Shown: in pieces, positions 41,463 to 43,145 of the stretch | Position numbering within the stretch: position 1 is the first letter of the stretch | How the letters are laid out: the number at the start of each line of letters is the position of its first letter | Made by a program: the position numbers and the translations under genes | Source of the DNA: Ostrea edulis | Lineage: Eukaryota | Assembly (NCBI RefSeq): GCF_947568905.1 | Contig: NC_079164.1 | Location: 46,004,001 to 46,068,000, forward strand | Length of the DNA stretch: 64,000 nucleotides | Direction of reading: 5' to 3' | Notes under the pieces: model-generated | What the model saw: only the letters and a program-made list of their open reading frames with translations | The model's database searches: none | What the model was told of the DNA's origin: nothing

Positions 41463-41523
41463 ATGGCAGAAAAGTTTCTTGACATTCTGTAAGTAGAACA
41501 ATTTTTAAAAAATATTTTTTTAC

Positions 41524-41574
<51 letters not shown>

Positions 41575-43145
41575 GAGGTCATATCTTGGCCGAATGGGCT
41601 AATGTGCTGAGTTGACAGTCTTGCTAGGCGGAGGGTGCCAGGTCGCTGGTTCGACCCCGGGTTGGAGCGTAAAATTTCAGTACTTAGTTGTGAATATTTA
41701 GTGCTCTATATATTAATTATTTGAATTTCACATGTATCTTTCAGTATATATTACATAGTTTGAGGGTTTTTTTCTAAGCTTGATGGGTGAAGAACTAGAA
41801 ATGGAATTTTTTTGAATTCAGTATGGGTCTGATTTACAGTATTTATTTTTTCTCCTGACAGCGACTCCACAAATTCAGCAAATTCATTCGAGGAGTTCGA
41901 ACAAATGTGGTTGAAGATGAGTGAAGAGTTGGAAATGGAAGGCCTGCCAAAGCGGTGAGTTTAACAGCTTTTATAAGAGTTATCTTTCTTTGGCTTGATA
42001 TGCCTACTTTCATGTAGTGCTTTGTTTCACGTTATATAGATAATATACATTATAAATATTAATGTTTTAATTGGAATCAGAAAGTGTGTTATATATTCTT
42101 TTAAAGGCCTTCCACTCCTACCCCCGAAAGTACAAGTCAAACCGAGACAATTCTACTTAAAAGGTATATATAAACATTAATTTTAGACTTGAAATGATTT
42201 TAGAACCATAAATTTTCCAATCATTTTAGTGTAATGTTACACCTTTTAACAATTTTTATTATATTTAGTAAATTTTAAACAGATAACGAGTATTTTCTCC
42301 CTCCTTTTAACAATTTTTATTATATTTAGTAAATTTTAAACAGATAACGAGTATTTTCTCCCTCTATCTCTTCAAAGTATTAAATCTCCAAGTTTCTCGT
42401 TTCTTCTTAACATTTTATATACGTAGAATTGGAATGATGTACATCAATGTTTTATTTGGTGCCAAAGACTAACTGCTTTTTATGAAGTAAAATTAAATTT
42501 ATGTTCAAACTAAATTATCGAAGTACAAAGGAAAGTAATCCTCTCCATATCTCTTTAGACCTGAGAGCCAGCACAACTGCGGCACCTCAGCCAGTTACAT
42601 GTACTCGCCGGCCATGGATTCAAACTGGCGGTTAGCAACCGTGATTGACGAGGAACCTTTGGACAGTTTCGAAAACTGTGAGAATTCCATCCTTACTACT
42701 TTCCGGTAAACATAAACATTTTATTTATACTTTGTTTATTATTATAATGTTTGAATTAGAGAAAATTTAAAAAAAAATTTAAATATCATAAAATTTAAAT
42801 ATTATGCATATTAACATCATCTCTAATCTGGGGAAAAGGAACTAATATAAAATATCTTGAATTGATTTTTTTTTTATTGCAACATGTCATTTTTATCCTG
42901 TTTATTGTAGACGAAAAAATCCTGAGAAATATAATTTGTTGGAAAAGAGGTTGAGGGAGCCGTTAGCAGAACAATTTAAATTACTCCGAGATTTGAGCGA
43001 CCGCGTTTCAAAGGACTTGGAACAAATGAACATTATTGTTAATTATTTGGAGGACCAGTTGGCTCCCGTGACACCAAAGAAAAAGAGAGTGAAATTCACA
43101 ACTTGTGATATTGACATTAACAATAACGTCAATACCATACTATGA
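41463..43145 (+). CDS. Predicted five-exon gene (185 aa): acidic N-terminus, coiled coil, TPKKKRVKF (NLS + PP1 RVxF)
   Basis: Exons 41463-41488, 41862-41954, 42107-42163, 42559-42705, 42911-43145. Four phase-2 GT-AG introns, internal exons of 93/57/147 nt, no stops, and TATATAAA at 41412. Confidence 0.8.
41573..41670 (+). other. tRNA-like Pol III promoter element after (TA)n, in intron 1 of the RVxF gene
   Basis: A box TGGCCGAATGG (41587-41597) and B box GGTTCGACCCC (41648-41658). No acceptor stem. Confidence 0.55.

Follow-up and report, generated by a model that had tools for sequence, protein, structure and literature searches.

Does the DNA at positions 41463..43145 (+) of a 64,000-nucleotide stretch of the Ostrea edulis genome (the window) carry a genuine spliced gene, and what could its product do for the mobile element around it? 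Maverick accessory regions are usually read as intronless open reading frames (ORFs), and ORF-based annotation misses such a spliced gene. Our verdict is that the gene is real and spliced: an accessory gene without an earlier name, which has a conserved motif of the PP1 type and is situated in a mobile regulatory arm.

Gene model and splicing

When joined, the five exons give 558 nt, which encode 185 amino acids and a stop codon with no internal stops. All four introns (373, 152, 395 and 205 nt) run from GT to AG and are in phase 2, while the internal exons 2, 3 and 4 measure 93, 57 and 147 nt. The GC content is 35–51% in the exons and 18–31% in the introns. The parts of the gene are:

41412..41419 (+): TATA box TATATAAA, about 50 nt 5′ of the ATG, from the sequence and the layout of sister loci
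41463..41488 (+): coding part of exon 1, 26 nt, beginning a hydrophobic-acidic peptide; matched by the RefSeq models P0009, P0090, P0091 and P0225
Across the exon 1/2 junction (+): PhixxPhiPhiD pattern, from the sequence
41489..41861 (+): intron 1, 373 nt, phase 2; contains an AT microsatellite and, at about 41581-41700, a repeat of high depth
41862..41954 (+): exon 2, with an acidic amphipathic helix, F-x-x-[LM]-W, at residues 18-33
41955..42106 (+): intron 2, 152 nt, phase 2, from the sequence
42107..42163 (+): exon 3, Ser/Thr/Pro-rich, with a [ST]PTPE motif
42164..42558 (+): intron 3, 395 nt, phase 2, exact GT..AG joint in run X5
42559..42705 (+): exon 4, with the conserved YSPxxDxNW and ExSILTxFR motifs
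42706..42910 (+): intron 4, 205 nt, phase 2, exact joint in run X5, position identical in 16/16 loci
42911..43145 (+): exon 5, with a helical/coiled-coil domain, the basic cluster with RVxF, and the stop
43353..43358 (+): candidate polyadenylation signal AATAAA, from the sequence only

Five of the six sequencing runs listed, none of them on record as RNA, were compared with the locus (X1, X2, X4, X5 and X6, with X1 from the sample of X5). In run X5, a single contig skips exactly intron 3 and another exactly intron 4, at a depth of 3.0–3.4 and with a shorter side of 28–29 letters; both joints are absent from X1, X2, X4 and X6. Coverage in X5 extends to introns and intergenic DNA too, and we read this run as RNA with an unspliced or DNA background. 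Among the joints listed for the five runs there is none for introns 1 and 2, and one X5 contig is unbroken over 41581-42163. These two introns, not seen spliced, rest on the comparison with RefSeq models and a Logan contig. The C. virginica model XP_078329618.1 (P0009, 178 aa), P0090, P0091 and the Saccostrea models open with the peptides of exons 1 and 2, and RefSeq models from other oysters align with the 185-aa protein from residue 1. The Logan contig, 1317 nt long, encodes a continuous 215-aa relative (P0031) that begins at an exon-1-like start.

Sister loci point in the same direction. The last intron was found as GT..AG, in phase 2 and at the same Arg codon in all 16 loci checked (15 diverged, one near-identical), and a TATA-preceded first coding exon of 26 nt recurs in 6 of the 13 sister loci searched. 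The five-exon gene model is confirmed as real, with the splicing of introns 3 and 4 supported by one run. The exon–intron structure put forward in the preliminary description, with frame-preserving internal exons, is thus borne out by the joined reading frame, the X5 joints and the sister loci; its TATA box, too, was recovered, with the same TATA-to-ATG layout in those six loci. The spliced transcript that it proposed to look for is supported at introns 3 and 4 by the one run, and not seen at introns 1 and 2. It had also described the gene as ending in TPKKKRVKF, which needs correction, since this motif occupies residues 162-170 and is followed by 15 more residues before the stop. Most relatives terminate 1–5 residues past the F of the motif.

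The high-depth repeat in intron 1 (41581-41700) is tRNA-like, with a depth far above that of its flanks in four of the five runs, and is likely a host SINE; an Rfam scan of 41400-43900 gave just a chance match to the AT repeat and none for the tRNA-like repeat.

The surrounding Maverick element

The gene lies close to the right end of an element with the following landmarks:

22444..43877: whole Maverick/Polinton, 21.4 kb, with integrase-chromo, major capsid, adenain-type protease, packaging ATPase, protein-primed polB and two PC4-domain genes
23619..23843 (+): GADD34-like ORF, 74 aa, with KTVTF; PF10488 at E 1.3e-5
43648..43877: right terminal inverted repeat, 97% identical to 22444-22673, ending in ACTACT

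As in the terminal-repeat definition of Mavericks/Polintons taken from PMC8097293, this element has (AGT)2 ends (AGTAGT), terminal inverted repeats (230 nt) and a 6-bp target duplication (CTTCTG at 22438-22443 and 43878-43883), and it contains the Maverick core genes pPolB, integrase, protease, capsid and ATPase. Pfam placed PF03175, PF00665 and PF00770 above the cut-off, and PF21738 (E 0.003) and PF04665 (E 0.002) below it. The polymerase gene polB is divided into two ORFs at 32289-32522 (-). Here, as in all five sister elements checked, the FYG codons are followed by a GTAAG donor, so that polB likely has an intron as well. At 24100-25170 (+), the element encodes a CARD-PC4-PC4 protein with LxCxE and CxxC near its C-terminus and two RVxF-like matches, a candidate Rb-binding gene.

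A GADD34-like ORF, corresponding to the GADD34 mimic that had been proposed as the partner of the five-exon gene, does exist in the element: at 23619-23843, it scores 25.4 bits against PF10488, just below the cut-off of 26.1, and is likely the element's other PP1 binder. ORFs related to it (50–52% identity) were noted near several diverged copies of the five-exon gene.

Family members, element copies and selection

A homologue search had been suggested as a check, and it was productive. With the last exon as query, the genome itself gave 29 matches, 10 at 92–100% identity and 19 at 41–57%, and a more distant query gave 5 further matches, all on contig C8. Among 1.84 billion representatives, a profile search picked out 72 family members. 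The named relatives all come from Crassostrea, Magallana, Saccostrea or Ostrea, and an IMG/VR scan returned 148 pattern matches, none of which was confirmed as a relative. The oyster RefSeq and UniRef relatives XP_078329618.1, XP_078330688.1, XP_061170582.1, XP_052712130.1 and A0A8W8MPV4 share 36–57% identity and the same motif order, and are annotated merely as uncharacterised host proteins. Several "uncharacterised" oyster genes may thus be accessory genes of Mavericks, a relation established for the present genome only.

In another reading, the gene would be cargo of host origin or domesticated by the host, working for the oyster (in superinfection control, for instance) and not regulating the element. 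Its introns are host-like, 25 of the 29 last-exon matches sit on C8, and 7 of 15 diverged loci inspected with a 20-kb flank are without polB, capsid or integrase; nematode Mavericks moreover carry intron-bearing cargo thought to be host-derived (excerpts of bioRxiv 2022.07.12.499685). However, the other 8 of these 15 loci are inside elements with core genes, a Maverick-type terminal motif occurs within about 1.7 kb after the gene in 8 of 9 loci checked, and none of the searches for relatives named a homologue from outside the oysters. The clustering on C8 is equally marked for the element's own capsid clade (21 of 25 capsid matches at at least 88% identity). We consider a role in the service of the host very unlikely.

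Other Maverick clades (about 31% identity) are spread over all large contigs. On C8, Maverick ends of different allele classes are adjacent or nested within a few kb (L046 6782-9407, L056 and L010/L022). Six gene copies (L048, L050, L052, L058, L064 and L072) are without core genes within 20 kb, and five of them adjoin a terminal motif; these are possibly non-autonomous elements. A decayed partial repeat of the stretch encoding the coiled coil follows the stop in L044, L050, L054, L060, L064, L066, L068 and L070.

For codons 1–55 of the last exon, dN/dS is 0.15–0.59 in six unsaturated pairs (six other pairs are saturated), which indicates that this exon is under purifying selection between alleles. 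In run X6, whose organism label is a different one, the exon differences listed for a near-identical allele comprise 9 non-synonymous changes, including loss of the stop, against 2 synonymous ones; these differences are consistent with neutral decay.

The RVxF tail motif

Two overlapping patterns and one neighbouring site define the tail:

43083..43097 (+): KRVKF (residues 166-170), RVxF PP1-docking consensus overlapping the K[KR]x[KR] NLS pattern
43071-43076 (+): TP before the motif, specific to the window allele

The consensus for PP1 regulatory subunits, [K/R]x0-1[V/I]x[F/W], in which V and F are the two residues docking into PP1 (excerpts of PMC6406801), fits residues 166-170 of the 185-aa protein. 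RVxF is short and common, with dozens of pattern matches across the six frames of the whole element. Conservation of the motif in sister elements, on which the preliminary description had staked its reading, is found in 13 of the 19 diverged own-genome copies; two of the remaining six carry a substitution (KRAKL), and four lose the frame or diverge earlier. None of the five most distant own-genome matches fits RVxF. Among the 72 library representatives, 68 could be anchored and 4 could not, and RVxF is present in 40 of the 68 anchored tails, compared with a mean of 2.9 and a maximum of 10 in 1000 shuffles. It is also kept in the most distant named relatives (P0219, P0221 and P0223, about 35% identical).

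Of the 45 library tails with the motif in register, 43 have V or I and 41 have F at the respective positions; the basic and x positions are more variable. Both RVxF and K[KR]x[KR] fit 23 of these 45 tails, RVxF only fits 16 and the NLS pattern only fits 6. The 23 other tails comprise 19 with neither pattern, three with the NLS pattern only and one with RVxF only. Since the register test partly picks the same residues, 40 of 68 is the unbiased RVxF count. This pattern speaks for V and F being under selection, with a superimposed import signal. In the model of P0009, the tail motif lies beyond the folded part, in coil of low pLDDT after the helix at 113-165. Judged from its sequence, the 185-aa protein probably binds PP1 via RVxF, and a nuclear location through the overlapping basic cluster is plausible.

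The tail also resembles an import signal of the c-Myc type, and it could be an import signal only, belonging to a nuclear coactivator or corepressor mimic that does not use PP1. The 23 in-register tails in which both patterns coincide can be read in this way, as can nine tails that have K[KR]x[KR] but no RVxF, of which six are in register (the variants RVKL, RAKF and RTKF), and the KRAKL of L024, L025 and P0220. Against this, 16 tails are without the NLS pattern and nevertheless keep RVxF, among them forms whose basic positions are taken by H, Q, S, M, C or E, and V and F are retained in the most distant relatives. We consider a pure import signal rather unlikely.

According to a further proposal, already contained in the preliminary description, CDK phosphorylation of the T before the basic cluster would gate PP1 docking or import in the cell cycle. 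TPKK of the window allele does fit the CDK consensus and is kept in all 10 near-identical copies, and the S/T-P sites of exons 3 and 4 are conserved. By contrast, an S/T-P site 0–4 residues before the motif occurs in none of the 19 diverged own-genome copies and in 3 of the 72 representatives, one of which is the window allele's cluster. Because this site is not conserved, cell-cycle gating is unsupported, and we judge it highly improbable.

The remainder of the protein

42969..43064 (+): predicted coiled coil, about residues 128-159, from a heptad count; pLDDT 91–97 in a homologue model

AlphaFold modelling of P0009 with 20 sequences gave two N-terminal helices, one of them at 15-34, then a disordered stretch in the middle and, towards the C-terminus, a long helix, with a pTM of 0.27. 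The coiled coil that had been claimed from the sequence holds up, with hydrophobic residues at 8 of 9 a/d positions and a long helix of pLDDT above 90 in this model. The 185-aa protein is predicted to be disordered in its middle and to form a coiled coil at its C-terminal end, probably as a dimer.

The possible activation domain at the N-terminus is a borderline case. The published rule asks for a 39-aa tile with a charge of -13 to -8 and W+F+L >= 6 (PMC10550315 eq. 3), at a stated precision of 0.19–0.73 (same source, in excerpts). Residues 1-39 of the window protein are acidic and hold nine W/F/Y/L, but with a net charge of -7 they narrowly miss both published thresholds. A tile satisfying the rule is contained in 7 of 16 family sequences, and the acidic helix F-x-x-[LM]-W in 9 of the 16. 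Both [ST]PTPE and YSPxxDxNW are conserved, the former presumably being a possible phosphodegron, and one allele class has an LxxLL motif in its disordered part.

Pfam reported nothing at cut-off for three exon peptides and 10 full-length homologues, Foldseek found no match in the PDB for the P0009 model (pTM 0.27), the profile reached a best E of 0.15 against PDB sequences, and the best ESM Atlas score of 0.79 was uninformative; no DNA-binding or substrate-binding domain was identified in the protein family by Pfam, PDB or ESM Atlas. On inspection by eye we rejected a bHLH-like spacing in the window allele, as relatives carry insertions of 3–9 residues after the conserved proline and Pfam reports no HLH. 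A resemblance between the N-terminus of polB and exon 2 was likewise rejected, as 90 of 1000 shuffles scored equally.

Alternatively, the protein could be a PP1 decoy. As a decoy, the protein would bind PP1 through RVxF without presenting a substrate, and would compete with host regulators for the groove, so that host targets such as Rb or checkpoint and immune factors stay phosphorylated. The chain has one motif, at its extreme end, and neither another PP1 contact nor a substrate domain was recognised, which would suit such a role. There is a precedent in the C-terminal RVxF of measles V, which keeps PP1 off MDA5 (excerpts of PMC10807198), and the gene lies upstream of polB, as do the Rb-targeting "Oncoid" genes of adintoviruses (excerpts of PMC8502044). 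On the other hand, conservation of the N-terminal helices and YSPxxDxNW from genus to genus implies other partners, and the window protein has neither LxCxE nor a CR1 motif. We consider a decoy an unlikely explanation.

The variable right arm

35467..43400: variable right arm, about 8 kb, from the polymerase start to the right terminal repeat; identity to sister elements stops at 35466-35496

The arm contains the five-exon gene and a divergently transcribed second gene of spliced appearance, and elements with cores 97–100% identical differ wholesale in it. L060/L061 and L070/L071 are 96.7–99.8% identical to the window from about 23.5 kb to 35466, and have no match of at least 150 nt to it between 35466 and about 43400. 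In L042/L043, L062/L063 and L044/L045, identity breaks at 35481-35496. Since the core identity stops at the polB start, the arm up to the terminal repeat is exchanged as a block.

Allele relationships reach beyond this genome. L039 and C. virginica P0001 share 92% identity, L028 and M. gigas P0002 share 85%, and both of these C. virginica and M. gigas proteins are 44–46% identical to the window allele. Both pairs are starred in the tree (70 columns, 21 rows), and as the genome is that of one species, at least one pairing crosses species. Diverged alleles are common to several oyster genera, through either horizontal transfer or old polymorphism. These observations suggest movement of entire regulatory arms from element to element, and probably from one oyster species to another.

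The second gene (36660-40051, -) has a Cys-containing first exon with two CxxC and five repeated Ser/Thr-rich exons, followed by a hydrophobic segment, CCC and a Pro-rich tail. Its predicted product resembles a mucin-type membrane protein.

Proposed function

Our main reading, to which we assign a probability of about 45%, is that the spliced accessory gene of this oyster-type Maverick encodes a nuclear PP1-recruiting adaptor for element expression. The C-terminal RVxF would dock host PP1, the basic cluster overlapping it would drive nuclear import, and the coiled coil would dimerise the protein. The acidic N-terminal helices would contact a host transcription or chromatin factor and bring PP1 there, possibly assisted by the element's own two PC4-domain proteins; PC4 binds the acidic activation helices of VP16 and p53 (excerpts of PMC2755895). 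Delivery of PP1 to this factor by such an early nuclear adaptor would then allow expression of the element's genes. HIV Tat, which recruits PP1 so that CDK9 is dephosphorylated, offers a functional model (excerpts of PMC10807198). We infer PP1 binding, import via the basic cluster and an adaptor role with a transcriptional target.

A broader and more doubtful version treats the arm as a spliced early region like adenovirus E1A/E3/E4, traded as an 8-kb block, also across oyster genera. Its hub would couple an activation helix to PP1 and switch the element on, while the separate GADD34 mimic, at the opposite end of the element, would sustain translation. If this were true, a 21-kb endogenous virus would have captured PP1 twice independently, and the allelic diversity would point to an arms race with the host.

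Through PP1 docking, the element would be able to influence phosphorylation in its host, probably within the nucleus. The gene is a concrete candidate regulator, and it bears on how integrated Mavericks are switched on and handle their animal hosts.

Comparison with known systems

No PP1-docking Maverick gene was found in the literature searched; paper supplements or Repbase may already list the ORF. The available sections of bioRxiv 2026.10.13.758929 and 2025.02.07.637071 hold nothing on the five-exon gene, and in excerpts of PMC8097293, intact vertebrate Mavericks have no introns.

Known viral PP1 recruiters include the GADD34 mimics HSV ICP34.5 and ASFV DP71L as well as HIV Tat and measles V (excerpts of PMC10807198). 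The oyster protein is likewise a small accessory protein with RVxF, placed near the C-terminus as in measles V and proposed to be used in the nucleus as in Tat. Unlike these recruiters, its gene has five exons and is part of an integrating Maverick, its coiled coil precedes a terminal motif, and its docking is predicted. PF10488, the family of GADD34, ICP34.5 and DP71L, matched none of the three exon peptides and 10 full-length homologues, so that the 185-aa protein is not a GADD34 mimic.

The cargo of nematode Mavericks (the WASP proteases and the KRMA kinases) resembles the oyster gene in its introns, its location in a poorly conserved region between terminal repeat and core, its gene trees that conflict with the host species and its modular exchange (excerpts of bioRxiv 2022.07.12.499685). 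In contrast to what these excerpts describe, the oyster region lies between polB and the terminal repeat and is low in GC, and its product is motif-rich and non-enzymatic, with no ubiquitin-like fold detected.

A further comparison involves the adintovirus "Oncoid" genes and adenovirus E1A. The main text of PMC8502044 leaves splicing and phosphatase unmentioned. While the window protein lacks the LxCxE, CR1 motif and CxxC pair of these proteins (LxCxE occurs in 0 of 16 family sequences, and the CR1 pattern in one of 16, in a read-through tail), it shares with them, as described in excerpts of PMC8502044, a gene position upstream of polB, a mostly disordered chain, short motifs and acidic N-terminal helices.
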